Source: an uncultured Christensenellaceae bacterium (GTDB lineage Bacteria > Bacillota > Clostridia > Christensenellales > UBA3700). Taken from it: a DNA stretch of 64,000 bases. The stretch lies in assembly GCA_944381365.1 (NCBI GenBank), contig CALWKW010000002.1, positions 64,318 to 128,317 of the forward strand, read 5' to 3'. The notes beneath the pieces are model-generated. The model was not told the DNA's origin. It made no database searches and was given only the letters and a program-made list of their open reading frames with translations. Positions 38,741 through 58,294 of the stretch are shown piece after piece. The translations under genes were made by a program, and so were the position numbers. The first letter of the stretch is position 1. Each line of letters opens with the position of its first letter.

Positions 38741-38748
38741 GGTGAAAT

Positions 38749-39627: not shown

Positions 39628-39638
39628 GGAGGCTCGAA

Positions 39639-40888: not shown

Positions 40889-40892
40889 AATC

Positions 40893-42212: not shown

Positions 42213-42224
42213 GAGGAAAAAGCA

Positions 42225-42509
42225 ATGGCAAACTATTTTAGAATTACAGCATATCACCCGACCGAAAATCTCTCGGTCATTATGGATTCAAACGGACTGT
42301 TTGAAAAACTCTGGCAATTCTCGTCCTTTATGGTATCCAAAGGCTTCAAAATCATTGAAGTCGGGGGCGAAGACAAATTCAACGAAGGCGATATGCCAAA
42401 AGTCGAACCTGACAATACTCATGTTATCGTTCGTGCTTGTAAAAGCGGTCTACCGGAAATTACAGGCAACTGCATTACGGTAGAAGGTAAATCATACTCC
42501 ATTATATAA
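42225..42509 (+). CDS. hypothetical protein, 94 aa (last gene of the + array)
   Basis: AGGAGG RBS, followed by a strong terminator. Confidence 0.55.
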   Translation: MANYFRITAYHPTENLSVIMDSNGLFEKLWQFSSFMVSKGFKIIEVGGEDKFNEGDMPKVEPDNTHVIVRACKSGLPEITGNCITVEGKSYSII

Positions 42510-42556: not shown

Positions 42557-45373
42557 TTATATATTAGTATATTTATTCTTTCTTGCCAAAAACGCTTCCT
42601 TCCCTCCTTCAAGTATATTGCAAATATGCTGTTGAATACCCCTTGAACCTAAGAAAGTATCTTCGTCTATAATTGTAATATTTTCAATCGCGCCAGATCT
42701 ATATTCAAACCTAAATGATTTATTGTTTGTTTGTGCATTACTGTCAATTTGCTGATTTGCTACAATAACTTCTTCAGCATCGCAACCCAGTACCAAATTT
42801 GCATTGTGTGTAACTAATATAATTTGTCTATCCTTTTTTCTATCCCTTATAAACGAAACCAAATCAGAAACTATAGATAAATTATCCAAATCGTCCTCAG
42901 GCTGATCTAATAATATCGGGCATTTAGATTCGTCGTGACTAATAAGTAACTTTAATAATACTAACGCCTTTTTCCCTGGTGACATATTTTCAATTTGATC
43001 ACCATCCATTTCAATAGTATATATAATATTGTCAAAATCACTTAAAAGTTCTTGCAAAGCGTGATTTTTATCATATTTGCTCAATAAAACTTTTTGAGTA
43101 TCATTTCCTAAAATTGCGTTAATATAATCTTTTTTACAATCCTCATCAAACTCAGATTCTAAAATAAATTGTTCATTATCTAAATCTCGGAATACGCCAT
43201 TATGAATACTTTTTAAGGCACTTTGTGTGAATATTTTAGTGATCGTTTCCTTAAACAAAGACCTACGACGACGTTTTATCGCAACAATTTTAAAGTTTTC
43301 ATCGGTATCTTTAAATTGAATACTCTTAAATTCACTTTCAAACAAATCATATTCCGCCTCGCGTGATGTTGTTAATGAAAGAATTGAATTTATTAAATCA
43401 TCTAATGCTTTTCGTAAATTTCTTAGAATCTCATATTCATCATTAATTTTTCTCAACTGTTCCTCTTCAGTCCGTAAATCTCCTTCAAGCTTTTTAATTT
43501 CTGCATTATTATCAATCATCGGTTTAAGCCCATTAATGATCTCCATAATCTTGGCATATTCCACTTGCAATGCCTCTAATCGATCAGATATAGAATCAAG
43601 AATTTTAGCTTTAGATTCTTGCCATGATTGTTTCGCTTCTTCAGAGATAACTTTAGCAACTTCGCTTACTTTCTTAGCAATCGCTGAATCCATTAAATCC
43701 TCAATATCAATTTTAACAAAAACATCTTCACTATTCTCGATCCGCTTCTTATCTGCAGTAAGCATTTGAATATTTTTTTCTATTAAAATTTTATCTTCAA
43801 CAGCTTTATCAAATCTAGCGATATCATCTGTAGATATGTTTAATGTTTTTGCTAAAGCTTCTTTTCTTTGACGCAGCAATTCTATATTATTTTTTACAGA
43901 TTCTATTCCTCCTAAATCCTTTATTAATAAAACTTGGGAATCAAATTCTTTCTTTTTATAAACCAATTCCAATATTTTTGAATCAATCTGCTTTTGTATA
44001 TCTATATTTTTTGCATCAAATGATCTACGCAGATCACAAAAAGCTTTATTTTGACAGATAATGTTTTCAATAATTTTATCTATTTCCGTCTTTTCCGCAC
44101 GGTCATCCATTAATTTGTTAAGATATGATTGTGCAATATATACAATTTTCTTATCGTCGCTTGAGCCATTATATGAAATAGCCCCATCTTTCCAATGAAC
44201 TTTAACAGGAAATTCTAAAGGCTTTTTTTTACCATTATAAACAGTCTCAAGACGTGAAGAAACTTCTGATGAATCAATAGCTCGCGCTATATTTTGAAGC
44301 AGTATAGATTTTCCTGTAGATTTTAATCCAATTATACAAGTTAAATTTTGATTAATTGGAAGCATTTCGTTGGAAAAACGATGAGGCACAACATTATCTT
44401 CTATAACAATGCCGTCTATAATCCTATAATTGTCTACACGATCTGCAGGGCAAAATTCCTGAATACGAACACGCTCAATTGGCTCGCAAAGAATTTGACG
44501 CAGCCCTTCCCAAGTAGGATCAGCTTTTATCCAACAATATCTTTTTGTAGATTTCCCTTGGTTATCAAGGGGTTCAAATATTGCATTATTAGTATGCGCA
44601 TCACATCCCCAAACACACGGCATAATTTTACTAGGTTTTTTATCTTTTTCTCCAGAAAAAAACTTAATATCCGATGGATTAGCAGATAATATCAAATCAG
44701 AAACCATATAAAGATCTCTTCTATATTCTAATAAATCTACTAAATCCTGGGAAGGACTACTTGGATTACCTACAGCTGAGGCCCCATCAGTACTTTTATT
44801 TGGCATTAGAACCAATACGTTATCCTTACATTCTGGATAATTATTAAATATTTTGATTATGTCATCAAAATTTATATGAAACTCTTCAACTCCTTTTTTA
44901 TATGCACGTTCATCATCTAGTCCAGGGACAAGTTCCTTCCCATAACGAATCAAGTCATCTTTACGCGCACAATAAGTACTTGTTGCAGACTTGTAGATTA
45001 AATTGCTTAAAATAATAGTATCTACTCTATCCACAAAAGAAGGATTGATTAAAAGATGTACATTCATTTTAACTCCATCTTTTAATGGCAAGCATCTCAA
45101 CTCAATATTAGGAAATATAAAATCTATATTTTGATCAAGAATACCATCGGCTTTTATCTTCTTGTAGTTTTCAATAGAAAAATAATCGGTAATGCCTACT
45201 GCTGCAATTTTTCTTTGAGGATCACTTCCATCACCGATGTAATTTTTTATATCTTGATAAAACCTTGCCCATTTTTCATCGTTATCACCATGAAACTGGT
45301 CATTTTTCTTAGTATTAGGTGTATGAAGATGAAAATCCCACCTTCGCCATTCTGAACCTCTTGAATAATCCAT
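42557..45373 (-). CDS. PHP-domain phosphoesterase fused to an ABC/SMC-like ATPase with a long coiled-coil insertion (Ppl/PplA-like defence protein)
   Basis: PHP motifs WDFHLHTP, ITDY, NIEL, NVHLL, GCDAHT. Walker A GLKSTGKS, about 370 aa of K/E/L-rich heptad-like sequence, signature-like MSPGKKAL, Walker B ILLDQPEDDLD, and H-loop VTHN. Confidence 0.8.
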   Translation of the reverse strand: MDYSRGSEWRRWDFHLHTPNTKKNDQFHGDNDEKWARFYQDIKNYIGDGSDPQRKIAAVGITDYFSIENYKKIKADGILDQNIDFIFPNIELRCLPLKDGVKMNVHLLINPSFVDRVDTIILSNLIYKSATSTYCARKDDLIRYGKELVPGLDDERAYKKGVEEFHINFDDIIKIFNNYPECKDNVLVLMPNKSTDGASAVGNPSSPSQDLVDLLEYRRDLYMVSDLILSANPSDIKFFSGEKDKKPSKIMPCVWGCDAHTNNAIFEPLDNQGKSTKRYCWIKADPTWEGLRQILCEPIERVRIQEFCPADRVDNYRIIDGIVIEDNVVPHRFSNEMLPINQNLTCIIGLKSTGKSILLQNIARAIDSSEVSSRLETVYNGKKKPLEFPVKVHWKDGAISYNGSSDDKKIVYIAQSYLNKLMDDRAEKTEIDKIIENIICQNKAFCDLRRSFDAKNIDIQKQIDSKILELVYKKKEFDSQVLLIKDLGGIESVKNNIELLRQRKEALAKTLNISTDDIARFDKAVEDKILIEKNIQMLTADKKRIENSEDVFVKIDIEDLMDSAIAKKVSEVAKVISEEAKQSWQESKAKILDSISDRLEALQVEYAKIMEIINGLKPMIDNNAEIKKLEGDLRTEEEQLRKINDEYEILRNLRKALDDLINSILSLTTSREAEYDLFESEFKSIQFKDTDENFKIVAIKRRRRSLFKETITKIFTQSALKSIHNGVFRDLDNEQFILESEFDEDCKKDYINAILGNDTQKVLLSKYDKNHALQELLSDFDNIIYTIEMDGDQIENMSPGKKALVLLKLLISHDESKCPILLDQPEDDLDNLSIVSDLVSFIRDRKKDRQIILVTHNANLVLGCDAEEVIVANQQIDSNAQTNNKSFRFEYRSGAIENITIIDEDTFLGSRGIQQHICNILEGGKEAFLARKNKYTNI

Positions 45374-45391
45374 ATATTCTCCTTATAAAAT

Positions 45392-46357
45392 TTAGCTCAA
45401 CAATAACTTTGCGACTTCTTTAGCAACATACCAAAACATAACAGGGGCAATTGCGTTGCCTAACGCACGATATTGGGCGCCTTCAGACCCAATGAGCACA
45501 AAAGATTCTGGGAAAGACTGGATACGAGCAACTTCACGAGGAGTAAAACGCCTAAATCTACCATTATCCAAAAGAACAGGATCTGTACTATTCAAAGAAA
45601 CCTTTGCTAAATGAGCTCCAACCGTATTACACGGTTGATTAATATCTTGCGCTCGTCCCTTATTCATCGTCTCTCGCTTTTTCATCATACCTGCTATGGC
45701 TTTATCGCTAAAGAAATATTTTTCAGGAACTGCATTCTCAATAACTTGAGATAAAGTTGATATGGGGAGATCTCCTTCTTTAGGTAAGCACTCAAAATCG
45801 AAAATCGTATTTAAGTCCTTCCTAATACCAACAATGATAACCCTTTCTCTCTTTTGCGGAACGCCAAAATCAACCGCATTCAACAACTTAAAAGAAACAT
45901 TATAACCACTGTCCTCAAACTCCTTAATTATCAGGGGGAAAGCACTTTTCCCATTAGCCGACAAAATTCCTTTAACATTCTCAGCAATAAAACACCGAGG
46001 CTTTTTATCCCTCAAAATCCTGCACATTTCAAAGAAAAGTTTGCCTCTATCATCTTTGACTCCTAACCGCTTTGGATTCTGTGCAACAATAGAAAAAGAT
46101 TGACACGGGAACCCACCGGTCAAAATATCAATTTCGGGAATTTCAGCTGAACCAACGGATCTAATATCTCTATTATCTGGTTTAATCCCAAAATTTCGCT
46201 CAAATATGGCGCAAGCATTTTCATCTATATCATTAGCATAGACTATCTCGATTGGATTCTCATCGTATTTTTTGCCTAAAAAAACAAAATCACCAAGCAA
46301 ACCAACATCTGTACCACCGCAACCACAAAACAATGACGCAACTTTTAACTTACCCAT
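45392..46357 (-). CDS. DNA (cytosine-5)-methyltransferase (second MTase of the cassette)
   Basis: Motif I LFCGCGG, IV GFPCQSFS, VI ENVKG, VIII QKRERV, X GNAIAP. Confidence 0.9.
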   Translation of the reverse strand: MGKLKVASLFCGCGGTDVGLLGDFVFLGKKYDENPIEIVYANDIDENACAIFERNFGIKPDNRDIRSVGSAEIPEIDILTGGFPCQSFSIVAQNPKRLGVKDDRGKLFFEMCRILRDKKPRCFIAENVKGILSANGKSAFPLIIKEFEDSGYNVSFKLLNAVDFGVPQKRERVIIVGIRKDLNTIFDFECLPKEGDLPISTLSQVIENAVPEKYFFSDKAIAGMMKKRETMNKGRAQDINQPCNTVGAHLAKVSLNSTDPVLLDNGRFRRFTPREVARIQSFPESFVLIGSEGAQYRALGNAIAPVMFWYVAKEVAKLLLS

Positions 46358-47754
46358 GTCAACAACTCCTCAAAATTACCCGCAGTCGCTATTTCAAATG
46401 TAATTTCTGCACCATCTTTAGGTATCATATTGATGATATCTTTTTTATATAATCCAACAGGGTCTTGAATTACATACAACTTTTTCTCTAATTTACTTAT
46501 CATCAAACGATATACAAAATACCTATCCTTCATTGATCCAGCCGTATTCCACTCATTCGGTGTCATATGAATTTTATTAAAATGTAATGGTTTGGAACTA
46601 ATGGTTGTCTTTACTTCTATATAACGCTTCCGTTCATCAAGTTCGACGGATTGAATATCATATCCGACAGCGAATTGTGTAGGGATTCTTTTAATTAAAT
46701 GAATCAAATCAATTCTTCCACCATTTTTAATACGTTGGCACTCATGCGAATGAACTAAACTCTCCCCGATATCTCCAATATCTTTGGTTTTAATATCTTC
46801 TTGATCTAATAACTGTGAATAAGTTTCATCTCTATTGCGTTGTAATTCTTCATATTCTTTTGTACTTGAAGAAATAAAAGCCAAGATATCTGTTGTAAAA
46901 TCAGTATGACTCATATCTCTGTTAACATAATTATACCAACCTACTGTACACGATTTTATATCTTCTAATGTAGCATACCTTCTTGAGATCATTAAATCAT
47001 ACGCATTAAACCATTCAGTTGAATTAATAAATTTCAAAATAGCTTCATTTTCTAACGTGTTAGTGTAATAAGCCTTACTATCATGGGACACTAACAAATT
47101 GGCAATTTCCATATAGTCGATAATATCACCAGCATATCTAATTATATCGCCGGTAGAATCATACTCTATAGAATCATCTCTATTTTGTTTAATACGATGC
47201 CATGTATCCAACGGAGTTTCAAGTCCAGTAGTACAGCGCAAATCATTAAATATACAATGGCAGACCTCCTCTTTCGATAAACCAATTCTTTTACCAGTTT
47301 CTTGTTCGGCCGCTTGAAATACTTTTAATATGTACTGTACTGGCTTGAAATGAATGCCAGCTTCGATTTGCTTTAACACCTCGTGAGGTTTAATATGCGC
47401 GCCCGGATATTGAAAAGAATATAAAAAAACCTTAAAGGCTTCAACCAAATCTTCTTTTTCTGCCAATTCAATTGCACGCTGTCCGGGAGAAGTCGTACCA
47501 TTATCGACAATGTAAAAACCGAAGAGTGAAGAAATTTCAGTTCTCCAGTTATTAATCGTTTTGATTTTCCTTATTGCATTTCCCGGATATCTACGAATAG
47601 CATCATTTAATTGTTCTGCAAAATCTTTCTCAGATTGTGCAGGTATTTGCGCAATTTCTGTTGCCATATAAATAAGAACATTTTCTATATCCCCCTTGAA
47701 ACGAGGACGTACATGATGTATTCTAAAATAATACTTTTCAGGCACCTTGTACAT
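46345..47754 (-). CDS. putative type II restriction endonuclease with C-terminal PD-(D/E)xK (DUF3883-like) domain
   Basis: C-terminus GDIGESLV...GYDIQSV...RYIEVKTT...EWN...YFVYRL fits a D...EVK nuclease core. The gene is sandwiched between two MTases and overlaps the downstream one by 13 nt. Confidence 0.6.
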   Translation of the reverse strand: MYKVPEKYYFRIHHVRPRFKGDIENVLIYMATEIAQIPAQSEKDFAEQLNDAIRRYPGNAIRKIKTINNWRTEISSLFGFYIVDNGTTSPGQRAIELAEKEDLVEAFKVFLYSFQYPGAHIKPHEVLKQIEAGIHFKPVQYILKVFQAAEQETGKRIGLSKEEVCHCIFNDLRCTTGLETPLDTWHRIKQNRDDSIEYDSTGDIIRYAGDIIDYMEIANLLVSHDSKAYYTNTLENEAILKFINSTEWFNAYDLMISRRYATLEDIKSCTVGWYNYVNRDMSHTDFTTDILAFISSSTKEYEELQRNRDETYSQLLDQEDIKTKDIGDIGESLVHSHECQRIKNGGRIDLIHLIKRIPTQFAVGYDIQSVELDERKRYIEVKTTISSKPLHFNKIHMTPNEWNTAGSMKDRYFVYRLMISKLEKKLYVIQDPVGLYKKDIINMIPKDGAEITFEIATAGNFEELLTWVS

Positions 47755-47759
47755 ATTTG

Positions 47760-48851
47760 TTACTCCTTTATATATTTTAACAACTGTTGCGCTATTGCTT
47801 GAGCCATAAGGGGTGGCACAGCATTACCTACTTGTCTAAATTGCTGAGTTTTATTTCCTAAGAAAATAAAATCATCTGGGAAAGATTGCAATCTTGCACA
47901 TTCCCTTACAGTTGGAACACGATTATATTTATAATGGAAATGATGCCTATGACCGGTGTCTATTGTAGGAGCTGGTTTGTTGCTATCAAATCTAGTCCAT
48001 GCAACATGAAAATTTCTACTACTTCTGTAAGCTTCGGGCAAATCTTTATAGTTGCCTCCATCAGGAACCATACTAATTATCTTTTGAACCTTTTCTGAAT
48101 GAACAGCCGCTATATGATTTTTCACTACACTTGAATGCTGTCTCATCAATTCCTGATATTGACAAGTACACTCCGTTGCATAACTTTGAGTTTCCTCACC
48201 TAAAGAATCAATCAAGGGAGGCAAATCACTTAATGCCATAGAACACGTTACTTTATCTTTCTGTGTGGGCGGAAATTCGAACTCGCCATTTTTAAGTCCA
48301 ACAAAAACCACTCTGCGTCTTGTTTGCGGAACACCATAATCTGCAGCACAAATAATTTGATATCTAACAGTATATCCCAAATCTGTAAGGCGCTTTATTA
48401 TACTATCTTTTATTTGACCGCCAAATAAAGAGACTAATCCCGGAACATTTTCAATAACAAACGCTTTCGGTTTAATTTCTTCTACCAACCTAATATAAGA
48501 TAAATATAATTTGTTTCTAGGGTCATCAAAACGCCGAGGTCCAGATAAAGACATTCCTTGACAAGGGGGACCGCCAATAATAACATCTATTGTTTTATTG
48601 CCTGTCGCTTTATCAATATCCTGCTTATGCAAAACAGTAATATCGCCACAAATTGATTTAGCGCCTTTATGATTAAGTTCAAATGTTTCTAATGCCTTTT
48701 TATCATTATCTATGCCAAGAACTATATTATACCCAGCACTTTCAAAACCATATGATAAACCGCCACAGCCACAAAATAGATCCAATACATTAATCATAAT
48801 TTTACTTTTCACCTTTCGCATTTTTTCGTCCATCAATAGGCTTTTCTGCAT
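47760..48851 (-). CDS. DNA (cytosine-5)-methyltransferase (first MTase of the cassette)
   Basis: Motif I LFCGCGG, IV GPPCQGMS, VI ENVPG, VIII QTRRRV, X GNAVPP. The true start is probably the ATG at 48797 (MINVLDLF) or 48821, just after or overlapping the HTH gene. Confidence 0.9.
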   Translation of the reverse strand: MQKSLLMDEKMRKVKSKIMINVLDLFCGCGGLSYGFESAGYNIVLGIDNDKKALETFELNHKGAKSICGDITVLHKQDIDKATGNKTIDVIIGGPPCQGMSLSGPRRFDDPRNKLYLSYIRLVEEIKPKAFVIENVPGLVSLFGGQIKDSIIKRLTDLGYTVRYQIICAADYGVPQTRRRVVFVGLKNGEFEFPPTQKDKVTCSMALSDLPPLIDSLGEETQSYATECTCQYQELMRQHSSVVKNHIAAVHSEKVQKIISMVPDGGNYKDLPEAYRSSRNFHVAWTRFDSNKPAPTIDTGHRHHFHYKYNRVPTVRECARLQSFPDDFIFLGNKTQQFRQVGNAVPPLMAQAIAQQLLKYIKE

Positions 48852-48987
48852 TAATCGGAATAGCCCAATTTTCCCCTAATTTGAACACACCGGGAATTCG
48901 ATTTTCCATACATAGGATTTGAACTCTTCGCTGCGAAATATTCCATTTTTTTGCAGCTTGGCTGGCTGTCATAAATTGATTTGTCAT
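48802..48987 (-). CDS. small helix-turn-helix DNA-binding protein (MerR/excisionase-like); candidate controller of the cassette
   Basis: MTASQAAKKWNISQRRVQILCMENRIPGVFKLGENWAIP, with an AAGGAG RBS. It is the first gene of the operon. Confidence 0.7.
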   Translation of the reverse strand: MTNQFMTASQAAKKWNISQRRVQILCMENRIPGVFKLGENWAIPINAEKPIDGRKNAKGEK

Positions 48988-49022
48988 AATAGCTCCTTAT
49001 ATTGTTCCACGGGACGAATGAT

Positions 49023-49051
49023 ATTATAGCATGAATAAAATAAATTTTCAA
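49023..49051 (-). promoter_or_regulatory. near-consensus sigma-A promoter driving the defence operon
   Basis: On the minus strand: TTGAAA, 17 nt, TATAAT, about 35 nt upstream of the HTH gene ATG. Confidence 0.55.
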
Positions 49052-49117
49052 GTCTATCAACTCAAAATCGGTAAAAAATCAAAAATGCTTTTACTCGCAT
49101 TTACTCATTTTGCAACC

Positions 49118-49183
49118 GTGGCGTGTGCTTGTCTTGATACGAGAGCGGCGCCGCTTCGCGCCGCCGCGACAAGCACACGCCAC
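49118..49183. other. nested inverted repeat carrying CTTGATA; candidate rolling-circle double-strand origin / nick site
   Basis: Perfect 16-bp arms, GTGGCGTGTGCTTGTC (49118-49133) and GACAAGCACACGCCAC (49168-49183). An inner 7-bp GC stem (GCGGCGC/GCGCCGC) sits in the loop. CTTGATA lies at 49133-49139 on the + strand, at the stem/loop junction. No T-run on either side. Confidence 0.5.
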
Positions 49184-49312
49184 TCGACCAAACCTGGTTG
49201 AAGGAGGAAAAGAAAAGTGATGACGGAAGCGGAGTCGCCCGCTAACCCGCTTGGGCGATCTTCCGCTTTCACCGTCACACTTCCCTTTCTTCTTTCCGTA
49301 TCCGTTCCATCT

Positions 49313-50350
49313 TCAATTACACTTTCGCATTTGGTCGATGACGCCTTTGCTGACTTGTCCCATGTAGCAGCCCTCATCCCAGCACGAGAAATCGTCGTAA
49401 AGGAGCAGCTTCTTTTCCTCACTCCCTATCGTACAGACGATGTCCTCGTCCATGATGTCCGAGATGAAAAACTGCGGCAGTCCCTTCGAGTAGACCATTT
49501 TCTCGCCGGTCTTTTCCATATACTTCGTGAGATACGCTATCGCCTCGCCGAGCATAGAGCGGTCGTCCACGGTCTTGAAGTCAGACCTGCCGAACCTTTC
49601 GTTGAAATAAGTGTTCTGGATCGTCGTCTGCACCTTCTTCTTGATCGGCGAATAGTCCTTGACCTCAACGAGTTCTCCGGGCATCGCTCCGTCCGGAATG
49701 TAGAACAGCCCGTGGAAGTGAAGCCGCTTCTTTTCGGGCGAGCGTTCCCACACCCCGACATACTTCCAGCCCTTGCGGTGGCACATCATTTTGAAGCATC
49801 CGCGTAGCTTCCTCATAAAGCTCTCTTCGGTATGCTTTGCCCCGTCGTAGGTGAAAGTGCAAAAGTAGTTGAAGTCCTGCAAATTCACCTTGCGAGTAAG
49901 CCTGATACGCCGACAAATCAGATTCCGCAATTTCCGCTCAAATTGCACTTCCACATACTTTATCGTGCTATCTTCATCCTTAAAGTACGGCTTCATGTTG
50001 CGAACGATAAACTTCTTCCTCGCGCTTCGGGACTGCCCTGCCGACTTTTGATACAGTTCCTCGAAGAGTTCCTTCCGCGTCATCGTCCTTGACCTCGGCT
50101 TCTTCTCAACCGTAGGTTCGGCCTCCTCCTCATTTTCCGTATGCGAAGACGGCGCATCGTCATTTTCAGGCGGTGCGCTTTCTTCTGCGTCTATGGTTAC
50201 TTCCTGTTCCGTGGTCTGTTCCTCTTCCTGCTCCGTCACCTCTATCTCTTCTTCCGGCGGACGGAAACGCCGTCTTGACGGTCTTGTCGTGTGCGGTATC
50301 GCTATGTAGTGACTGCCGTCAAAATACACTTTGCATTCACCATAAGACAT
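49313..50350 (-). CDS. rolling-circle replication initiator / HUH endonuclease (superfamily I Rep; could act as an IME relaxase)
   Basis: Motif 1 FCTFTYD, motif 2 RLHFHGLFY (HUH), motif 3 AIAYLTKYMEK (YxxxY pair, as in the phiX174 A protein). Acidic low-complexity N-terminal third. Confidence 0.8.
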   Translation of the reverse strand: MSYGECKVYFDGSHYIAIPHTTRPSRRRFRPPEEEIEVTEQEEEQTTEQEVTIDAEESAPPENDDAPSSHTENEEEAEPTVEKKPRSRTMTRKELFEELYQKSAGQSRSARKKFIVRNMKPYFKDEDSTIKYVEVQFERKLRNLICRRIRLTRKVNLQDFNYFCTFTYDGAKHTEESFMRKLRGCFKMMCHRKGWKYVGVWERSPEKKRLHFHGLFYIPDGAMPGELVEVKDYSPIKKKVQTTIQNTYFNERFGRSDFKTVDDRSMLGEAIAYLTKYMEKTGEKMVYSKGLPQFFISDIMDEDIVCTIGSEEKKLLLYDDFSCWDEGCYMGQVSKGVIDQMRKCN

Positions 50351-50391: not shown

Positions 50392-52521
50392 TCACGCAGA
50401 ACTGTCGCCGTCCGCGTCCCTGTACAGCGAATTGATGAAATAACTGTTCTGCATTTTGAGTTCCTCAACCGAAGCCTTTTCCGTAGCGTATTCCAAGTAG
50501 TCCGCAAGCCCCGTATAGCTGCGCCGCGCCATATCGTTGAAATAGTCCGAGAAACAGTCCGTGCTGAACCGCTGTGCATAAATCTTCGCGCTCATCAGGT
50601 AATACTTCTTATTCTCCGTCTTGCCGTCCATCGTGCCGCGCTCTTTCTCTATCTTCAAAACCGAGTAGCCGAAGCGATTGTAGATGCGTAAGTTTCGCCG
50701 CCAAAGCCATGCGACAACGCTTTTGAGGATATGCACCAGCAAGGTATTGTCCCCGCGCCTGAAGCGGAAGTCGTAGTACAGCGACAGGAAGCGGTTGAAC
50801 GCCCACTCCGAGAGCATTTCCTCTATCGTGTAGAATGGCAGAGCGAGCCGCATATCTCCGCACGAAGCGATGTTGATGATGTCCGCAAGGTCTCGCGCGT
50901 CCGCACCCCAAGACTCCGGTCTTTGCTCATCGGTGAATACCTTAATAAATGGGAAATTATCCACGGTCGCGCTATGTCTGCACATCTTCAGCCACGAATT
51001 GAAAAGGTCGTTCTTCTGGTTGGTGTCGTCCGAGCCTTTCTTTACTTCCTTGAGTTCCAGATTGTTGCCGCGCTCCTTGCCTATCTCCGTGATCCCCACG
51101 ACGCCGAACTCAAAACTGCCTGCCTTCGGGTTGTTTTCCAAGACCTTGCGGCCCAAGCGCAACACATCGAAATCAAGGATATGCGCGTGCCTGCTTTGAG
51201 GCCGTCTGCGCTTCGGGAAGAAGTCCGTGAGCCACATCGGGAAGTTGCCGTTGTCTGCCATCAGATTGTCCGTGCGGACGGAGTAATTCGCCACGATGAG
51301 GCTGCTTTCCAAGACATAGATGAAGTATGCCTGCGCATAGGTTTCCAGAACCTCGAACAATCGGCTTATTTTGAGCGAATCGTCAAAAGTCGTACCGTAA
51401 CGCGCGTAATCGTATCCGTAAAGTTGCGTTTGCGCGTTTCTGTGCCGAATGAACCTTGACCGTTTCAACGCCACCCAAGCCTTGACCGAGGCGAGGTTAT
51501 ACACCGTTCCGTGTTCCATACAATGCCGCAGTTCGTCCTCAAAGGCGATCCACGGGAAGTAGGGGAATTTCATGTCGTTCTGTTGCAGGATCTCCAATGC
51601 CTTCTGACGGAACATCACCTCTTGCGACAGCACCATGTCCGTGATGAGCGTCGTCTTTTTCTTGCCCATGCTTCCGCACGCCATAGACACGATAGGCAGC
51701 TCGTTTATGAAGCCGCAGTTCCTCGCCTCGAAGTGCCGCAGTCTGTTCTGCGCAATGTTCTTCCGCCAGCGATCAAACAACAGCCAGCAGACGAACGCGA
51801 CACACCACCACGGAAAGTGCTGGAAGATGACCTGCAAGTCGATGAACAGCTTGCACACCTGCACATAGAGATTAGTCACATCGAAGCTCAACACGAAGTA
51901 GAAGTAGTACGCGAGAAAGTCCATTACGATGCTTGCCGCGTTCAGGTGGAACGCCCACATCACCGCCCAAAGGATCCATACCGCGCGATGCTCCGTGAGA
52001 AAATCCCGATACGACAATGCAGCTCGTTTCAACGGCTGATACAGACATCGCGAAAATGATTTGAACACTTTCAGCGGTACGGTATCCTTGTTGTGTTTCG
52101 TGTTGCCGCTTTTATACAGCCGCCAGATGACCAGCCATAAGATGAGCAGGCACGGAAGCATGATTGCCACCACTTTCAACAGCACGAGCATCACATCTCC
52201 GACCTTAGACCAATAGCTTGCAAAGTTCTCTCCGTCTATGAGAAGTGCAAAGAACGATTTCGACTGCGAAGTAAAGCCCTCGAAGTCCGACGGGAGAAGG
52301 ATGCTCCAATCCATCACCGAAGAATACTCCGTAACGGACGGCACGATATTATGCTCTATCCCGAACAGCGTACAGAAATAGTACCCTACCGACAGTCCGA
52401 AGTCCTTGACGGCTTCTCCGAAACGCAGATATGAGTCCGAAAATACGAACAACGCAAGCAACGCAAATGCCGCCGTTATCAACACGGACAGGCAAATATT
52501 AAATACTCTGCGCCTGTTCAT
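50392..52521 (-). CDS. 709-aa polytopic membrane protein with C-terminal P-loop-like NTPase region
   Basis: About 6 hydrophobic helices in the first 270 aa. A deviant Walker A (ACGSMGKKKTT) sits at about aa 285, with a Walker-B-like FGVVGITEIG about 190 aa later. GGAGGTGG RBS. Confidence 0.6.
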   Translation of the reverse strand: MNRRRVFNICLSVLITAAFALLALFVFSDSYLRFGEAVKDFGLSVGYYFCTLFGIEHNIVPSVTEYSSVMDWSILLPSDFEGFTSQSKSFFALLIDGENFASYWSKVGDVMLVLLKVVAIMLPCLLILWLVIWRLYKSGNTKHNKDTVPLKVFKSFSRCLYQPLKRAALSYRDFLTEHRAVWILWAVMWAFHLNAASIVMDFLAYYFYFVLSFDVTNLYVQVCKLFIDLQVIFQHFPWWCVAFVCWLLFDRWRKNIAQNRLRHFEARNCGFINELPIVSMACGSMGKKKTTLITDMVLSQEVMFRQKALEILQQNDMKFPYFPWIAFEDELRHCMEHGTVYNLASVKAWVALKRSRFIRHRNAQTQLYGYDYARYGTTFDDSLKISRLFEVLETYAQAYFIYVLESSLIVANYSVRTDNLMADNGNFPMWLTDFFPKRRRPQSRHAHILDFDVLRLGRKVLENNPKAGSFEFGVVGITEIGKERGNNLELKEVKKGSDDTNQKNDLFNSWLKMCRHSATVDNFPFIKVFTDEQRPESWGADARDLADIINIASCGDMRLALPFYTIEEMLSEWAFNRFLSLYYDFRFRRGDNTLLVHILKSVVAWLWRRNLRIYNRFGYSVLKIEKERGTMDGKTENKKYYLMSAKIYAQRFSTDCFSDYFNDMARRSYTGLADYLEYATEKASVEELKMQNSYFINSLYRDADGDSSA

Positions 52522-52651
52522 AGACCACCTCCAAAGCCGCCGCTATCTCTTGCGTGGCGGAAAGCCGGCTACCCGTATAACACAGATAGCCGACCACGAT
52601 TCCCACCACGACCAAGAGAACAACAGCGATGATTCTCTTGACCGTTTTCAT
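52499..52651 (-). CDS. possible 50-aa single-pass membrane protein
   Basis: Below the track cutoff. Its ATG abuts the stop of the 691-aa gene. My translation is MKTVKRIIAVVLLVVVGIVVGYLCYTGSRLSATQEIAAALEVVYEQAQSI. It overlaps the start of the 709-aa gene by 23 nt. Confidence 0.4.
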   Translation of the reverse strand: MKTVKRIIAVVLLVVVGIVVGYLCYTGSRLSATQEIAAALEVVYEQAQSI

Positions 52652-54727
52652 TTACACCTCCAATCCGTCCGCATCGTCGGGCGGTTTTTGCGTCTGCTTT
52701 ATGGCAGGTTCTTTCTGCGCCTTCGCTTTCGTTTTCCGCTTTCGTCGGTTGTCTATCCCCTTGAACAGAGCCGCTATCGCCCTGAACGGCAGACAGATGA
52801 GCCAAAACAGGAATTTGAGGATATATGGCAATATCGGGAACAGAATGATGATGAGCAGAACTATCAGCACGATGGCGAGCAGGATCTGCCACCACTCCCA
52901 CTCGGAAGGCATCTGCACGGGCGGAGTTATCGCGTTGACGATATCCATAGGGCTGGACACCACGGGAATGACCGTATATACGCCGTCCCGGTTAAAAGTC
53001 AGCTGGATAATGTCAAAATCGAAGAATACGCTCTCCCAAGCCCTGTACGCCTGTCCGCTCGTGTGTTTGTCCGGAAGGATGGTGCGAAGCTCCATGATGT
53101 CCACCGCCGCGGAATAGTAGTCCGTAGTGGCGAAACGGAACAGCACGACCTGCTTTTTCTCATCGTCCTTGCCGCTGACCGTTGTGGCGTCTTTGAAATA
53201 GTCCCGAAGCGCCTGCACATCGTTGGCATTGATGAGAAGCCTGTCCGCAACTTCGTTGTCGTTGCCGTCCAGATCGCTTTCCTGTACAATGCAGATGGGC
53301 GAAACCGTCTTGCTTTCTTCTTCGGGAATGCCGCCGAATATCGTATCCCACAAGCCCCAATTTACCCAATTATCCCAGAAGGACGGATCAGTCTCCTGCC
53401 AGCTTGAAAGTTTCTGCAAGTCCACATCGGCGTCGAAATCGTAATAAGAATAGCCTTGCTGTATCTTGCCGAACTCGGTATCCATCTTGCGGTAGTCGTC
53501 GATGTCGTCCGCAAACAGGTCCGCGCTGATCGTGCCGTCCTTGATAGGCAGTGTGCCGTTTTCGAAGGTCTTGTTGTAACTCTTTATGTACTCGTACAAT
53601 GCGTTGCTCTCCACGCCGCCGATGGACACGATGTCTGCATACGGATCATACTCCTCGATGTCGTCCACCTTGAACAGGTAATACAGCGCGTCCGCAGGAA
53701 CATGGAGATAATTGTTACCGAGATTCCAGCCCCATTTTGCCACCATCATTCCGCCACCGCCGTCACCGGCTTGCTGACCGAGCGAAAGCACGGAATCGTT
53801 GTAGTTGTAGCCGAAGTATTCCCCGATATGCGCATACGCCTGATCGTAAAACTCCTGATTGCTCGTCACGACAATATCTTTGGTCTTGTACTCATACCAT
53901 TCCGCCTTGATGCGCTGCAACTTGCCGTAGGTATCAAAGAAACGCTGCGGCACGGCGAAATACACCGTATCCAGCTGATTCTGATACCCCGCGCCCTTGC
54001 TCGAAGTCTGCGTGCGGTAGAAGGTGTGCTTGACATCCAGCGTGATGGTTTCAAGATACTCCACCGAACTTTCCAGCGTACTCTTTGCGCCCGCGTCCGG
54101 ACCGTAGCCTGCCGCATAGCCGGTAAATTTGTATGTTCCGTTGACGGGATATTCGGTCGCGTTATTCGCGCCGTAAGTCACAAGCTCAATGCCGGAAACA
54201 TCGTACCTGCGCTCGTTGCTGTTCACTCTGTCCTTGAATGTCGTTCCATTTATCTCGCGGTCTACCACCTTGAATTTGTAGAACAGGTTCTTGTAGTTGC
54301 TGTCCTCGGACTTGTTCAAAAACTGCAGGTCAAACTTCGCATAATTGTTCGGCTTTCCCTCGGAATCATACGACACCGCCATCTGGATCTTGTTGCTCTT
54401 GCTGTTCGTGGAGATGTTCAGCCCTTGCGGATTATACACATAGACATACAGCCCGTAGTTACTTTGCATATTACCCTTGTACGAGTAGCAATACTCCACG
54501 AAATTGACGATCTGCGCCTGACTGTCCTCGTCATACGGATAGTCCTTCACATCGAAGGGCTGCCCGTTCACGGTGGAAGAGGTAAGGTCGTCCATGACAC
54601 TTGTCTTGTCGTAATTGAGTTCGCCGCTTTCCGCATAAGCGATATTCGGCGCCGCCGAAACGACGACGCCGAACACCATAACTATCGCGATAAGACAGAC
54701 GAACAATCTTTGCCTTACCGTGCTCAA
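52652..54727 (-). CDS. 691-aa secreted protein with cleavable-type signal peptide and C-terminal TM anchor plus basic tail
   Basis: TTG start. Signal peptide LFVCLIAIVMVFGVVVSAAPNIAYA. C-terminal helices WWQILLAIVLIVLLIIILFPILPYILKFLFWLICLPF, then RRKRKTKAKAQK. Confidence 0.7.
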   Translation of the reverse strand: MSTVRQRLFVCLIAIVMVFGVVVSAAPNIAYAESGELNYDKTSVMDDLTSSTVNGQPFDVKDYPYDEDSQAQIVNFVEYCYSYKGNMQSNYGLYVYVYNPQGLNISTNSKSNKIQMAVSYDSEGKPNNYAKFDLQFLNKSEDSNYKNLFYKFKVVDREINGTTFKDRVNSNERRYDVSGIELVTYGANNATEYPVNGTYKFTGYAAGYGPDAGAKSTLESSVEYLETITLDVKHTFYRTQTSSKGAGYQNQLDTVYFAVPQRFFDTYGKLQRIKAEWYEYKTKDIVVTSNQEFYDQAYAHIGEYFGYNYNDSVLSLGQQAGDGGGGMMVAKWGWNLGNNYLHVPADALYYLFKVDDIEEYDPYADIVSIGGVESNALYEYIKSYNKTFENGTLPIKDGTISADLFADDIDDYRKMDTEFGKIQQGYSYYDFDADVDLQKLSSWQETDPSFWDNWVNWGLWDTIFGGIPEEESKTVSPICIVQESDLDGNDNEVADRLLINANDVQALRDYFKDATTVSGKDDEKKQVVLFRFATTDYYSAAVDIMELRTILPDKHTSGQAYRAWESVFFDFDIIQLTFNRDGVYTVIPVVSSPMDIVNAITPPVQMPSEWEWWQILLAIVLIVLLIIILFPILPYILKFLFWLICLPFRAIAALFKGIDNRRKRKTKAKAQKEPAIKQTQKPPDDADGLEV

Positions 54728-55332
54728 AATACGATCACCTCCTTGTCCAATGTAACCCCTGCCGCATCCTGCAGTATGGAGAAATGAAGCGTAACGCTCG
54801 CTTCGCCGTTATACGAAGTAACGATAAGCGAATACATATCCTCATAACCTTTATCTTCACAGCCGCCAATCGTGTTGTTGGGATATACCGCCTGCAAAAC
54901 ATTTGCCACATTGCCGTTTTCAGATTTGGGCGTTATCGTGAAAGAGGTTTCCTCGCGCGCTATGTCAAACCCCGCAGTAAGGTCGGTTTCCGCCTGAAAG
55001 GAATACACCTGATCATCCAAAGTAAAATCGAAGTCTTTACCTTCAACGACATGAGGGACGATTTTCACGGAATAACCGCTGACATCACCGCCGGCTGAAC
55101 CGAATGTGTACTTCACATCAACAGTAAGGGGCATTTCCTGCGAGATCTTATAGCCGCCTGCACTCGTAAGAACATCTTTGCCGTCCACCGAAACATAAAA
55201 GGTCTTGAAGTCGCTCGTGAAGCCGCCCGTGAAATAGACGATCACGCCTATAACTCCGACCACGACCAGCACGAGCAGTATGTACCCTATAACTTTTGCA
55301 ACCGCGTTGCCTGTTTGTACACTCCTGCTCAT
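54724..55332 (-). CDS. 202-aa N-terminally anchored membrane protein
   Basis: TM helix VIGYILLVLVVVGVIGVIVYF followed by a beta-rich ectodomain. 4-nt overlap with the downstream gene. Confidence 0.65.
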   Translation of the reverse strand: MSRSVQTGNAVAKVIGYILLVLVVVGVIGVIVYFTGGFTSDFKTFYVSVDGKDVLTSAGGYKISQEMPLTVDVKYTFGSAGGDVSGYSVKIVPHVVEGKDFDFTLDDQVYSFQAETDLTAGFDIAREETSFTITPKSENGNVANVLQAVYPNNTIGGCEDKGYEDMYSLIVTSYNGEASVTLHFSILQDAAGVTLDKEVIVF

Positions 55333-55341
55333 AGGCTCACC

Positions 55342-56451
55342 TTAAAAAGAGATCGCGCTTTCGCTGAGTTGAACAGACGACACACCGGTACTAACCCAGA
55401 ATTTCACGGATGTGGACAAGCCGCTTATGCTGTCGGTTACCTTCAGAAGATAGTAGCAGGAGTCGATGTGAGACGCATTGTATGCGGCGCCTTCCTTATA
55501 CTCTTCCGAATATGCAGTTCCCATGCCTTCCATCCAATCTTCATAAAACACATAGTCGTTGTAGTACCAAGTTCCCGTGCCGTATTCATCACCCTCGCTG
55601 TGCGAATAGAAGAACGAGTCCAAAACCTTGTTAGCCGTTACGGTTACGGTATTGCCGCTCACGCTTGCAGTTACGCCGAGATACTGCATAAGATCGGATA
55701 TATTGACTTGCCTGACATTCTCATTTGTAGATCCGCCGAAAGAATCACCGAATACATCGCACACATAAATCGATCCCACTGCGCTTATCTCCGCGCTCAA
55801 GTCATACGAACCGACCGTATCCCAAACATTGCTCAAATTGACGGTAAAGGTCGTGGAGGTTTTGCTGGGAAGATCGTAGTATTCTCCCCTGCCGGAATTC
55901 GTGGTTGGCGACACGCTCGAAGTGAGATAAATGGAAGTAGCCACGCCGCGGAATGTGACAACACAAGTCGCCGTATAACCGCCTTGACGAGTTGTAACCG
56001 TGATGGTGATCTGATCGGAACCGAAAGGTTTCAAACAGGTTACGGTCGCCTCGCTGCTTCCGTCATATGTAGGCGTCACCGTCACATAATCCGTCACATC
56101 TTCGCTCTTGCCTTGATTGCTCCATGCGATAGACCAATCCACGAGTCTGTTCGTCGCGTCTATCGGATAAACGGTTGCCGTCAATGTCTTGCTCACCGAA
56201 CTATCCGCCGCAACAGTTGCAGCAGAACTCATAGCCAGCTTGACATTCGGCGAATTGAAGCACTCAGCGGTGAAATCATTGGCGTATGCCGCAGTTTCAG
56301 TTTCGGTTTCGGGTTCTTCCGTATCTATCTTATCCGAAAGAGAAACCGCTAAAGAAGCGACAACGCCTGCGATAAGCACCGCTATGAGCACGAACACGAT
56401 GATCCATTTCACCGCGTCCGATTTCTTGTGTTCATAGAATTCGTTGTTCAT
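55342..56451 (-). CDS. 369-aa N-terminally anchored protein with Big_2-like Ig domain(s)
   Basis: TM helix WIIVFVLIAVLIAGVVASLAV. VSKTLTATVYPIDATNRLVDWSIAWS...ITITVTTRQGGYTATCVVTF resembles a bacterial Ig-like group 2 domain. GGGAGG RBS. Confidence 0.65.
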   Translation of the reverse strand: MNNEFYEHKKSDAVKWIIVFVLIAVLIAGVVASLAVSLSDKIDTEEPETETETAAYANDFTAECFNSPNVKLAMSSAATVAADSSVSKTLTATVYPIDATNRLVDWSIAWSNQGKSEDVTDYVTVTPTYDGSSEATVTCLKPFGSDQITITVTTRQGGYTATCVVTFRGVATSIYLTSSVSPTTNSGRGEYYDLPSKTSTTFTVNLSNVWDTVGSYDLSAEISAVGSIYVCDVFGDSFGGSTNENVRQVNISDLMQYLGVTASVSGNTVTVTANKVLDSFFYSHSEGDEYGTGTWYYNDYVFYEDWMEGMGTAYSEEYKEGAAYNASHIDSCYYLLKVTDSISGLSTSVKFWVSTGVSSVQLSESAISF

Positions 56452-56477
56452 GTTTTACCTCCCAAAAGATTAGAAAA

Positions 56478-56505
56478 TGCGGCTCGCGGTTTCCCGTAAG
56501 CCGCA
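56478..56505 (-). terminator. hairpin / partial terminator between the 120-aa gene and the membrane-protein genes
   Basis: TGCGGCT...AGCCGCA 7-bp stem. On the minus strand it is followed by TTTTCTAATCTTTT. Confidence 0.4.
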
Positions 56506-56518
56506 CATGCGCTTTGTT

Positions 56519-56881
56519 TTACGCCGCTCTTTTGACGAGCATGGCGAGCAGAGCCTTGTCCGAATTGCGGTACGGCTTGACGCTGCACTCGTAGATCTCG
56601 CCGTCTTCGTCCACCGACTGCACGGCGTAGGAATTGCCTGCAATCACCCTGCCGGTGGCTTCGTCCTTGATCTCATACGGCTTCAGAATGAGTTCTGCCG
56701 ACATTTCGTTGCCGAACACGATATCCAGCACGGTATAGCCGCCTTTGTCGGGCGGAACGACCGCAACCTTGACATCCTTGCCGCGAATGACGCCCTTGAT
56801 GAAGTAGGAGAAGAAAGTCCTTCCGTTCTTCTCGAAAGTCTCTCTTTCCACGAAAATCTTGCCGTTGTTATTCTTTGCCAT
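56519..56881 (-). CDS. hypothetical 120-aa beta-rich protein (OB-fold/ssDNA-binding role is speculative)
   Basis: GGGAGGA RBS. Sequence starts MAKNNNGKIFVERETFEKNGRTFFSYFIKGVIRGKDVKVAVVPPDKGGY. Confidence 0.6.
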   Translation of the reverse strand: MAKNNNGKIFVERETFEKNGRTFFSYFIKGVIRGKDVKVAVVPPDKGGYTVLDIVFGNEMSAELILKPYEIKDEATGRVIAGNSYAVQSVDEDGEIYECSVKPYRNSDKALLAMLVKRAA

Positions 56882-56900
56882 GTTTCATATCCTCCCGATT

Positions 56901-57164
56901 TTACTTTTTGGCTTTGCCTTTCTGTCTGGAAATGCGCTTGGCTTCCGCCTTGGACTTCCCTTCCGCGAGAGCCTTCTTGTACTTGTAGGTGCCGGCATGA
57001 TCGGACTGACACTGAAGATACCCGGAACGCATACCCGCTTCGTAGTCCGTGAGTTCTTTGCCCTCTTTCGGACCGTGCTGATGGACCTTTGCCTTCCTTT
57101 CCTCTGCGTAGCTCTTGGCGCGCTTGGAAGGAACGGTCCAACGTCTTTCATCGTACTTTGCCAT
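56901..57164 (-). CDS. 87-aa highly basic protein
   Basis: AAAGGAG lies 8 nt upstream of the ATG at 57164 (MAKYDERRW...). Lys-rich C-terminus KSKAEAKRISRQKGKAKK. Confidence 0.6.
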   Translation of the reverse strand: MAKYDERRWTVPSKRAKSYAEERKAKVHQHGPKEGKELTDYEAGMRSGYLQCQSDHAGTYKYKKALAEGKSKAEAKRISRQKGKAKK

Positions 57165-57330
57165 TGTGATGCTCCTTTTTGAATTTTTACCCATAACGCA
57201 GGGTAAGCGCGGATATAATCGCTGAACGGCTGCTTACGGAACTCTTCGTCCCCGGCGATGAACTTACGGCAGTGGCCACATTGCGCCGTATGAACCATCG
57301 GTCTAACTCTTGAACCGTTCACGGACTACC

Positions 57331-57537
57331 TTAATGTATCGGGTAACGAGTGCCCGAAAAGGTCAGTAGGTCTTGCCTTGCGGAGAACCTTTCGAGAAGC
57401 GGACAATACAGATACGAAACCTGCCAAAGCTCCACTTCCAGATGCTTGCTCCTGCATTTTTCGAAGTATCTCTGCGCCTTCACGATGTCCTTAAAGTACC
57501 TGCAACCGAAATTGCATTCCACTCTGAACCTCTGCAT
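57331..57537 (-). CDS. hypothetical 68-aa protein
   Basis: AAGGAGG RBS upstream of the ATG. Confidence 0.5.
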   Translation of the reverse strand: MQRFRVECNFGCRYFKDIVKAQRYFEKCRSKHLEVELWQVSYLYCPLLERFSARQDLLTFSGTRYPIH

Positions 57538-57587
57538 TTTTCAACCTCCTTTTGAAGTGCCTTCACTATTTAGGCTCGAAAATCGCA

Positions 57588-57998
57588 TTATACAAGGGTG
57601 TCAGCCAAAAATTTTTGCAATTTTTTCTTGATACGGCACAATCTGTCCGTAATAGCCTGCTGACTGACTTGCTGCGCTTCTGCAACATCAATGACTTTTC
57701 TGCGCTCGATATAGACCATCTCGAACAGTTCGCGCTGACAGTCCGTAAACGAGGCGATGGCGGCGTCCAACTGTTCGCGCTGCTTTTCTCGCATAAGGCT
57801 TTCGAACGGATCGGCTTTATCGTCCATAAAGGCGTCGCCTTCATAATCGAACAGCGAGGCGGACTTGTTATGGCGGTCGTAATTGTACTTACTCTTACGC
57901 TCCGCTTCGTCCATCTCTTTCAAGATGTCGTACCACTTGTCCTCTACATCTATCGTGCTTTTCGTGCCGTCTGCAAAATAATAGGTGTACTTCTTCAT
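57588..57998 (-). CDS. sigma-70 region-4-like HTH protein (Tn916 Orf7-type regulator)
   Basis: C-terminal FTDCQRELFEMVYIERRKVIDVAEAQQVSQQAITDRLCRIKKKL matches the region 4.2 pattern. Confidence 0.65.
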   Translation of the reverse strand: MKKYTYYFADGTKSTIDVEDKWYDILKEMDEAERKSKYNYDRHNKSASLFDYEGDAFMDDKADPFESLMREKQREQLDAAIASFTDCQRELFEMVYIERRKVIDVAEAQQVSQQAITDRLCRIKKKLQKFLADTLV

Positions 57999-58140
57999 GT
58001 TTCTGCTCCTTGAATTTGGTTTGGAAATCCGCAGAGCCGGTTTCTTTCCGCAAACGAAAAGACGGCATAAAAAGCGTTTGAGATTTGCTTTCCATTGCCG
58101 TCTTGCGGTCTGCGGATATGTTGTTTTTAGTTTTCGGGAC

Positions 58141-58290: not shown

Positions 58291-58294
58291 AGCT

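Follow-up and report, generated by a model that had tools for sequence, protein, structure and literature searches.

Origins of rolling-circle replication have a nick-plus-bind organisation (reviewed in PMC5714925), and in pMV158-type origins a nic hairpin and a bind locus of 11-bp direct repeats are joined by a separate ssoA hairpin, for which the CS-6 (TAGCGA/T) and RSB sequences are given in PMC6395029. Initiator families include Rep_1 (pC194/pUB110), Phage_GPA (phiX174 A), Phage_CRI and Rep_trans (PMC5714925), while the G2P proteins of inoviruses and the ORF2 proteins of plectroviruses make up the Pfam family PF23343 (REP_ORF2-G2P). The pC194 origin has the heptamer CTTGATA (PMC7072734), and the "extraordinarily stable" DNA mini-hairpin GCGNAGC is found at the complementary-strand initiation sites of the single-stranded DNA (ssDNA) phages G4, St-1 and alpha3 and in ssiA of RSF1010 (PMC13037366). 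In conjugative elements, the genes of the leading region point towards the origin of transfer (oriT), which allows their transcription from the incoming strand (PMC11541004). Here we describe a locus that shares features with each of these systems, located in a stretch of 64,000 nucleotides (nt) from the genome of an uncultured Christensenellaceae bacterium (contig CALWKW010000002.1, positions 64,318 to 128,317; hereafter the window). The locus comprises rep, a gene for a predicted rolling-circle initiator, and two hairpins downstream of it, of which the more distant one, hairpin 2, is an inverted repeat enclosing a bulge and an inner hairpin (coordinates in Table 1).

Hairpin 2 is a structured element that is conserved and linked to Rep. 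Considered together with its conserved flank and the iterons of its relatives, we favour, with moderate confidence and from sequence comparison, its interpretation as the nick and recognition region (double-strand origin) of the adjacent Rep, serving an element of about 15 kb that is integrated in a Clostridia chromosome. That Rep nicks at hairpin 2, on which strand and at which base it would do so, and what use is made of the displaced strand are points that we infer, and the data would fit replication, transfer or packaging alike.

The predicted initiator and its hairpins

The 345-amino-acid (aa) Rep is predicted to be an HUH rolling-circle initiator. Motif 1 (FCTFTYD), the metal-binding HUH motif (LHFHG, within LHFHGLFY) and a motif 3 with the catalytic two-tyrosine pattern YxxKY (YLTKYMEK) can all be read in the translated open reading frame (ORF), as a first-pass annotation of the window had stated, and residues T165, F166, T167, Y168 and D169 of motif 1, H211, F212, H213 and G214 of the HUH motif, and Y273, K276 and Y277 of motif 3 do not vary among 11 homologues that are 62-100% identical. 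The same annotation had called the protein phiX174/pC194-type, which holds for the motifs and not for family membership. Besides the phiX-like YxxKY, the motif trio resembles that of a circular gokushovirus-like microvirus (locus L093, IMGVR_UViG_3300020043_004979 from IMG/VR, 4454 bp with a 121-nt terminal overlap), whose 255-aa Rep carries FVTFTYD, HYHALLF and YVLKYLSK and is 27% identical to the window Rep over the HUH domain. Membership in the pC194 or phiX174 families was rejected by profile search, since Rep matched none of Rep_1, Phage_GPA, Phage_CRI and Rep_trans even at E <= 10 and its sole Pfam match was PF23343 (E 6e-11; 42.9 bits, cutoff 27.8; residues 161-281), a family also annotated on nearly all Rep homologues among the matches listed. 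The AlphaFold2 model of Rep is poor (predicted local distance difference test, pLDDT, of 55 overall and 60-85 for core residues 160-280), and the best Foldseek matches of this low-confidence model were the Rep domains of geminiviruses, nanoviruses, circoviruses and Vientovirus, together with Helitron (probability 0.7-0.97, E 0.03-0.3); a search for solved-structure sequence relatives of Rep returned none. Homologues of Rep number in the thousands in gut metagenomes, and 436 relatives (candidate stretches) were found in species-representative genomes, mainly metagenome-assembled genomes of Clostridia, Christensenellales and Eubacteriales. The plasmids of PLSDB contained no Rep relative, and the search of a phage collection returned one faecal scaffold, which is unverified.

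The arms of hairpin 2 (49118-49133 and 49168-49183) are 16 nt long, 100% complementary and separated by 34 nt, and the nearer arm lies 129 nt from the rep stop codon. When folded as ssDNA, the plus strand reaches -32.7 kcal/mol (z = -6.9) and the minus strand -36.8 kcal/mol (z = -8.3), energies that none of 200 shuffled sequences matched. The first-pass annotation had correctly described a perfect 16-bp inverted repeat with an inner GC hairpin beside rep and had judged that it was not an intrinsic terminator; a terminator is rejected here as well, since a T-run is absent and a terminator scan of 48700-49500 returned no terminator-like site. The Rfam search at the hairpin gave no family match either.

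The same repeat was expected beside homologous rep genes, and it was indeed recovered as 108 distinct variants next to Rep homologues, in loci whose Rep identity ranges from 54 to 99%; of 169 testable cases, 137 have the 3' end of rep on the proper side and no more than 600 nt from hairpin 2. The metagenome contigs in which hairpin 2 was found number more than 120. Alignment of 56 distinct variants of the hairpin revealed an invariant arm core, CGTG.GCTTG, and four invariant bulge positions (the C, T, G and T of CTYGT). The specified structure is paired in 89% of cells, both sides have changed in 17 of 28 pairs, and compensatory changes are seen in both stems. The covariation score is 0.206, compared with 0.077 in shuffles (none of 500 reached 0.206) and 0.04-0.07 with slid partners; relatedness remains in the shuffle control and is removed by the slid control, and the two agree. 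Conservation and covariation beyond both controls therefore argue that the repeat is not due to chance.

The surroundings of hairpin 2 also resemble an origin. Cargo-free relatives carry three to five direct repeats of 11 bp right after hairpin 2, followed by the terminator of the convergent operon (module B, see below); Tandem Repeats Finder gave GGGATAATCAA repeated 4.6 times (11 bp) in L051 and 3.4 copies (11 bp) in L085, and other loci have repeats of the CCCAAACTTT type. At least three phased iteron copies occur in 59 of 174 distinct distal flanks, as compared with 19 of 174 shuffled ones. Hairpin 1, situated between rep and hairpin 2, folds with -26.4 kcal/mol (z = -5.1) and has an equivalent in most of 65 relatives, where the stem sequences differ and the loop CAAGCGGNTYAGCGG is conserved. 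Individual folds were relied on for hairpin 1, as RNAalifold on a MAFFT alignment recovered the apical pairs only and the variable stems misaligned. Its loop contains TTAGCGG or TCAGCGG, in which TAGCG recalls the TAGCGA of ssoA CS-6, a lead rather than a test; no RSB-like sequence was identified at hairpin 1.

The combination of a gene for a nickase, a structured candidate for the nick site, iterons and a hairpin resembling a single-strand origin corresponds to the standard organisation of rolling-circle origins (PMC5714925). The likeness is closest to the pMV158-type origins, which also place an HUH initiator beside a hairpin exposing a conserved unpaired sequence, next to direct 11-bp repeats as in the relatives and a second long imperfect hairpin with a loop close to CS-6 (PMC6395029). 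In contrast to those origins, Rep belongs to neither Rep_2 nor Rep_1, the candidate nick sequence stands in an asymmetric bulge instead of an apical loop, and the replicon is an integrated element of about 15 kb and not a small plasmid; the weak iterons of the window and the missing RSB-like sequence are further differences. As a separate observation, TTTTGCAACCG, the conserved sequence flanking hairpin 2 on its distal side, recurs at 55294-55318, where 25 nt are 76% identical to 49108-49132; this further copy lies where the genes for a 369-aa and a 202-aa protein meet and is possibly due to chance.

Strand and candidate nick sequence

The first-pass annotation had taken CTTGATA, at the junction of arm and loop, for a conserved nick core and the plus strand for the active one. 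The heptamer does occupy that position; its conservation and the choice of strand were not supported by comparison. The window contains 15 copies of CTTGATA where 11.9 would be expected, a chance-level frequency, so only its position could carry meaning, and it is kept (as TATCAAG on the opposite strand) in 68 of 107 oriented distinct variants, the remainder having TTCAAG, TTTCAAG, TACAAAG, TATAAAG, CTATGA or other sequences at the site. On the Rep-sense strand, CT[CT]GT (CTYGT) is present in all 107. Moreover, 101 of 108 variants have a GCGNAGC or GCGNNAGC match at the apex of the inner hairpin when the minus strand is read, and none has one on the complementary strand (shuffles average 3.8), with GAA, GCA, GTA, GGA, GTCA, GCCA, GACA and GATA among the apices observed. 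The minus strand of hairpin 2 folds more stably in 84 variants, compared with 15 favouring plus, and the Rep-sense strand of hairpin 1 is the more stable one in 49 of 65 relatives, compared with 16. The asymmetry of the mini-hairpin and the fold energies point to the minus strand as the single-stranded form, which in a rolling-circle scheme would also be the nicked strand. The functional single strand, and with it the nick, is thus probably on the minus (Rep-sense) strand of the window, and CTYGT, as CTCGT in the bulge, is the favoured candidate for the nick or recognition site.

The same evidence bears on the possibility that hairpin 2 is an origin cut by Rep on the plus strand, between 49136 and 49137 (CTTG/ATA), in the manner of phiX174 and pC194, so that the displaced strand would be antisense to rep. 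The unpaired position of the heptamer in the plus-strand bulge, its retention in almost two thirds of the variants, its occurrence in the pC194 origin (PMC7072734) and the YxxKY motif and gokushovirus resemblance of Rep all speak for it. We nevertheless consider it quite unlikely, given a heptamer that is at chance frequency and replaced in a third of the variants while CTYGT on the opposite strand never changes, a mini-hairpin and fold energies that favour minus, and a Rep without a Rep_1 or Phage_GPA match. The comparison with phiX174 gpA, the VP4 proteins of Microviridae and pC194/pUB110 is a mixed one, in which the motifs are shared and CTTGATA is present in hairpin 2 of the window, but the heptamer is neither conserved in the family nor on the strand with the ssDNA-specific features; the GCGNAGC-type mini-hairpins are an additional likeness to the complementary-strand origins of microviruses.

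A second backbone informs on polarity. It is represented by L125 (1435-11421), L146, L170, L155 and L212 and by second copies in L008 and L025, and encodes a large serine recombinase, a 310-aa PF23343 Rep (about 43% identical) and a 231-aa protein beside the same two hairpins. Here the hairpins are inverted relative to rep, which puts CTYGT on the strand antisense to rep and every other gene, while the order of rep side, hairpin 1, hairpin 2 and cargo is kept (in L125, a type III restriction-modification system abuts hairpin 2). It had been remarked that the motif lies on the strand opposite to rep, which is accurate for CTTGATA in the window; the inversion makes this orientation uninformative and indicates that the cargo side is set by the hairpin itself.

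Convergent operons flank the two hairpins, which are sense with respect to the rep mRNA and conserved in structure; this would also suit elements acting as RNA, either as 3'-end stabilisers or as a factor-dependent terminator that keeps the two operons apart. We regard such a role as highly improbable. Neither a U-run nor a terminator-like site nor an Rfam match is present, the module B of the relatives has its own canonical terminator beside the hairpin, and a terminator would have no need of a sequence-invariant arm core and bulge. Besides, the apical tetraloops GTCA and GCCA fit the GNNA rule of DNA (the triloops its GNA rule) and not the GNRA rule of RNA, and the hairpins of the second backbone are antisense to all genes.

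Under the origin interpretation, the invariant arm core (GCGTGTGCTTGTC) would be what Rep recognises, the 11-nt bulge would become exposed once the repeat is extruded or melted, and Y273 or Y277 would cut in or beside the invariant CTYGT on the minus strand. The 3'-OH could then act as the primer for displacing the strand in the direction leading away from rep, across the distal arm, the cargo and module B, and the displaced minus strand may fold into hairpin 1 and the GCGAAGC-capped inner hairpin, which would serve complementary-strand priming, packaging or both.

Several observations weigh against this interpretation. The window has only two weak 10-bp repeats as iterons, and clear iterons are seen in only about a third of the relatives. 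The variants of hairpin 2 are phylogenetically related, so that their counts overstate the independent support. The anti-Rep strand does hold a pC194-like TCTTGATAC, and the GNA apex could be kept for recognition by a protein instead of for ssDNA folding. Additionally, no integrase is recognisable in the main element, and the circular or single-stranded forms that the first-pass annotation had proposed to look for were not found: a junction pattern search in metagenomes returned no circular junction, no terminal overlap was seen in hairpin-bearing contigs, and every copy seen is integrated.

Cargo beside the hairpin

Homology between close relatives stops at 49106-49109 (individual alignments and blastn matches end at 49102-49109), about 10 nt past the distal (left) arm of hairpin 2, at GGTTGCAAA, and the AT-rich defence cargo of the window then begins, which agrees with the first-pass description of a defence cassette immediately beside the repeat. 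The end of homology beyond the arm indicates that hairpin 2 belongs to the element and not to the cassette, and the concern that the repeat might be part of the cassette is answered by its presence in cargo-free relatives. The position just past the distal side of hairpin 2 is a cargo hotspot. Hairpin 2 is separated from the last gene of module B by 119-135 nt in six cargo-free loci, by about 385 nt in four, by 0.9-1.5 kb in five and by 2-9.4 kb in the rest, and the cargo genes differ by locus, examples being PAPS-reductase/DUF786x, an AAA-M41 protease, DruA with an FtsK-like protein, a Ppl-like ATPase alone (L023) and, in the window, Ppl with restriction-modification.

The last two cases can be compared directly. 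In L023 (11411-14270) only the Ppl-like gene occupies the hotspot (83% DNA identity), whereas the window adds the BpuJI-like system between Ppl and the hairpin (42557-48987), which suggests stepwise accretion on the hairpin-proximal side. In other loci, a mobile unit ending in GTCACATATTTTTATGGA(C/T)A replaces the distal arm of hairpin 2 at one exact point, after ...TATCAAGAC[A/T]; such ends were located in L003 (11224-11241 and 18344-18361), L004 (11224), L008 (3073), L025 (10301) and L053 (3606), in at least three subfamilies of the element and with different DNA behind each. In L003, a GTCACATATTTTTATGGA end also interrupts an IS200-like tnpA gene after GTTGATACA.

These arrangements raise the question of whether hairpin 2 is mainly a recombination site, either the entry point of the cargo or the attachment site of the element, and not a replication origin. 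The cargo is always on the distal side of the hairpin, over gaps of 119 nt to 9.4 kb, the unit described above has replaced the distal arm at the same base in L003/L004, L008/L025 and L053, and the main element lacks an integrase of its own. However, most cargo junctions are about 10 nt past an intact hairpin and not within it, no recombinase accompanies the cargo of the window, and the hairpin is equally conserved in cargo-free loci, is tied to an HUH nickase and iterons, and sits in the middle of the element and not at its ends, for which reasons we hold a predominantly recombinational role to be very unlikely.

The integrated element

The host side of the window has a guanine-plus-cytosine (GC) content of about 37% and indicates a spore-forming Firmicute, with Rho, citrate synthase and YpeB encoded in 1-37000. 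The element, of about 50% GC, extends from about 37088 to 58855 and is broken by the AT-rich block at 42557-49107, giving a size of about 15 kb plus 6.6 kb of cargo. Hairpin 2 is central in it, between the Rep operon and the convergent PcfJ/PcfK operon (Table 1).

Table 1. Features of the Rep element in the window, with positions counted from the first base of the 64,000-nt stretch.
Feature	Position	Strand	Description and basis
Module-B-side element end (approximate)	37085..37100		ends ...CACGAAAGGCATTAAAAAAT on minus
Module B	37371..42509	plus	operon convergent on the hairpin; ORFs, Pfam
AT-rich defence cargo	42557..49107	minus	GC 29-39% compared with about 50% in the element; Pfam and PADLOC matches
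Ppl-like ATPase	42557-45373	minus	Pfam/PADLOC
C5 methyltransferase	45392-46357	minus	Pfam/PADLOC
BpuJI-like endonuclease	46345-47754	minus	Pfam/PADLOC
C5 methyltransferase	47760-48851	minus	Pfam/PADLOC
Small helix-turn-helix (HTH) protein	48802-48987	minus	part of the AT-rich cargo
Cargo's own promoter	49023-49051	minus	promoter match 11/12
Two 10-bp direct repeats	49087..49106		GAGTAAATGC and GAGTAAAAGC (minus); weak counterpart of the iterons of relatives
Conserved distal flank	49108..49117	minus	GGTTGCAAAA; last bases common to related elements; alignments, blastn end points
Hairpin 2	49118..49183		perfect 16-bp inverted repeat enclosing bulge and inner hairpin; proposed nick region of a double-strand origin
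CTTGATA heptamer	49133..49139	plus	nick core of the first-pass annotation; kept in 68/107 variants
Bulge	49134..49144		plus TTGATACGAGA, minus TCTCGTATCAA; 11 nt unpaired; minus strand holds CTCGT (complement of 49139-49143)
Inner GC hairpin	49145..49167	minus	apex GCGAAGC (complement of 49153-49159), a GCGNAGC-type DNA mini-hairpin
Hairpin 1	49206..49297	minus	long imperfect hairpin, apical CAAGCGGGTTAGCGG; candidate single-strand origin or packaging signal
rep	49313..50350	minus	predicted 345-aa HUH rolling-circle initiator; ORF and translation, Pfam PF23343, invariant motifs
Module A	50392..58767	minus	upstream of rep; ORFs, conserved synteny in L001-L009
Module-A-side element end	58853..58855		common stopping point of blastn matches with 8 loci from two subfamilies

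Module A encodes an HTH regulator, a sigma-like protein (57588-57998), small proteins, four proteins of 120, 369, 202 and 691 aa that are membrane-bound or secreted, a 50-aa transmembrane protein and the membrane P-loop ATPase p709 (709 aa), and rep is the last gene of the operon (58767 down to 49313, minus). A search for solved-structure sequence relatives of the 120-aa protein returned none. Module B contains small ORFs, DUF7222, DUF6809, a PcfK-MutS domain I fusion, PcfJ and a last gene of 94 aa; it is convergent to rep in 27-30 related loci and adjoins the hairpin directly where cargo is absent. In the fusion (39899-40888, plus), which is conserved in 26 related loci, a PcfK-like N-terminus is joined to the mismatch-recognition domain of MutS.

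The module-B-side end was placed by analogy with the break points of L046, L082 and L043 and by the conserved terminal sequence, the exact base not being fixed in the window. No convincing att direct repeats were found at the ends of the element. The main element lies between host genes in L055 and near the 3' ends of tRNA genes in L046, L049 and L055, and a search for an empty site through a flanking leucine-rich-repeat protein returned only occupied or truncated contigs. One hairpin-bearing contig near the size of the element (L104, NODE-3265, 15,210 bp) is labelled with a coverage of 149, compared with 5-78x for most hairpin contigs of the same assembly, which could reflect an amplified extrachromosomal form.

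A long-range inverted repeat is present at the upstream end of module B (37133-37158 and 37252-37281, also 37100-37135) and is conserved in L049 and L055. It contains two CGTTGACTT boxes, and GGCAAGTCAACGG...TTATTGC is paired with GCAATAA...CGTTGACTTCC. The TTGACT box that faces module B lacks a usable -10, and the second one points outward from the end of the element, or toward module A if the element were circular; these boxes may be targets of the sigma-like protein of the element. Just outside the module-A end (59055-62016, minus) are genes for a 629-aa ImmA/IrrE-type metallopeptidase-HTH protein, with a weak CapP match, and for a Fic protein that fits the SoFic defence model. This flank instead has WYL and LexA-like S24 genes in L001-L004, so that side is variable too.

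The ATPase p709 (50392-52521, minus) belongs to a family of 1055 clusters at 50% identity. It has no Pfam, NCBIfam or PHROG match, and 36 diverse homologues were likewise without a Pfam match. Its AlphaFold model, a confident one (pLDDT 88), combines an N-terminal multi-helix membrane domain with a P-loop domain, whose resemblance to the STIV2 B204, HerA, TcpA and Zot-type ATPases is weak (E 0.28 for the Zot model); the best viral match was an unnamed BFVD entry (A0A894JLK1, E 4e-4).

In some respects the element recalls inoviruses and plectroviruses, since PF23343 is the sole profile of Rep, a series of hairpins follows the last gene as in the intergenic region of filamentous phages, and the genes upstream of rep encode a membrane P-loop ATPase along with proteins that are membrane-bound or secreted. 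It is unlike the Inoviridae in that neither p709 nor the 36 homologues match a Zot/pI profile, no major coat protein is identifiable, a whole operon (module B) lies on the opposite strand, and the size exceeds that of typical Gram-positive inoviruses. A second comparison is with the oriT and leading region of conjugative elements, where the nickase gene on one side, PcfJ and PcfK genes pointing to the nick site from the other, and a variable accessory region starting at the candidate nick site have counterparts here. A nick on the minus strand would displace module B first, and the module could then be read from the displaced strand. In contrast, the cargo genes of the window are wrongly oriented for expression from a transferred strand, and PcfJ and PcfK were the only such domains found in modules A and B, with no Pfam or NCBIfam match to a relaxase family, a coupling protein or VirB4.

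A broader and doubtful reading would see in these loci a widespread, undescribed lineage of temperate ssDNA elements of gut Clostridia and Christensenellales, virus-like or self-exporting and with a new membrane-anchored ATPase of the packaging type, in which defence cargo would moreover be captured at Rep and the origin hairpin, for instance through aberrant termination or strand transfer at the nick. Capture at the nick, if true, would explain why unrelated defence systems and mobile units gather at one base range.

The pair of Rep and origin appears to be an ordinary kind of system, whereas the surrounding element and the defence hotspot at the origin appear to be undescribed; our literature searches returned no account of either this element or PF23343. 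It is rare for sequence alone to indicate, as the strand-specific GCGNAGC cap does here, which of the two strands of an element occurs single-stranded in vivo. If hairpin 2 is an origin, it would offer a precise and testable handle, consisting of two oligonucleotides and one 345-aa protein, on abundant and unstudied integrated elements of human-gut Firmicutes. It would also tie a hotspot of defence genes to an origin of replication or transfer, which bears on the movement of defence systems and on their early expression after entry.

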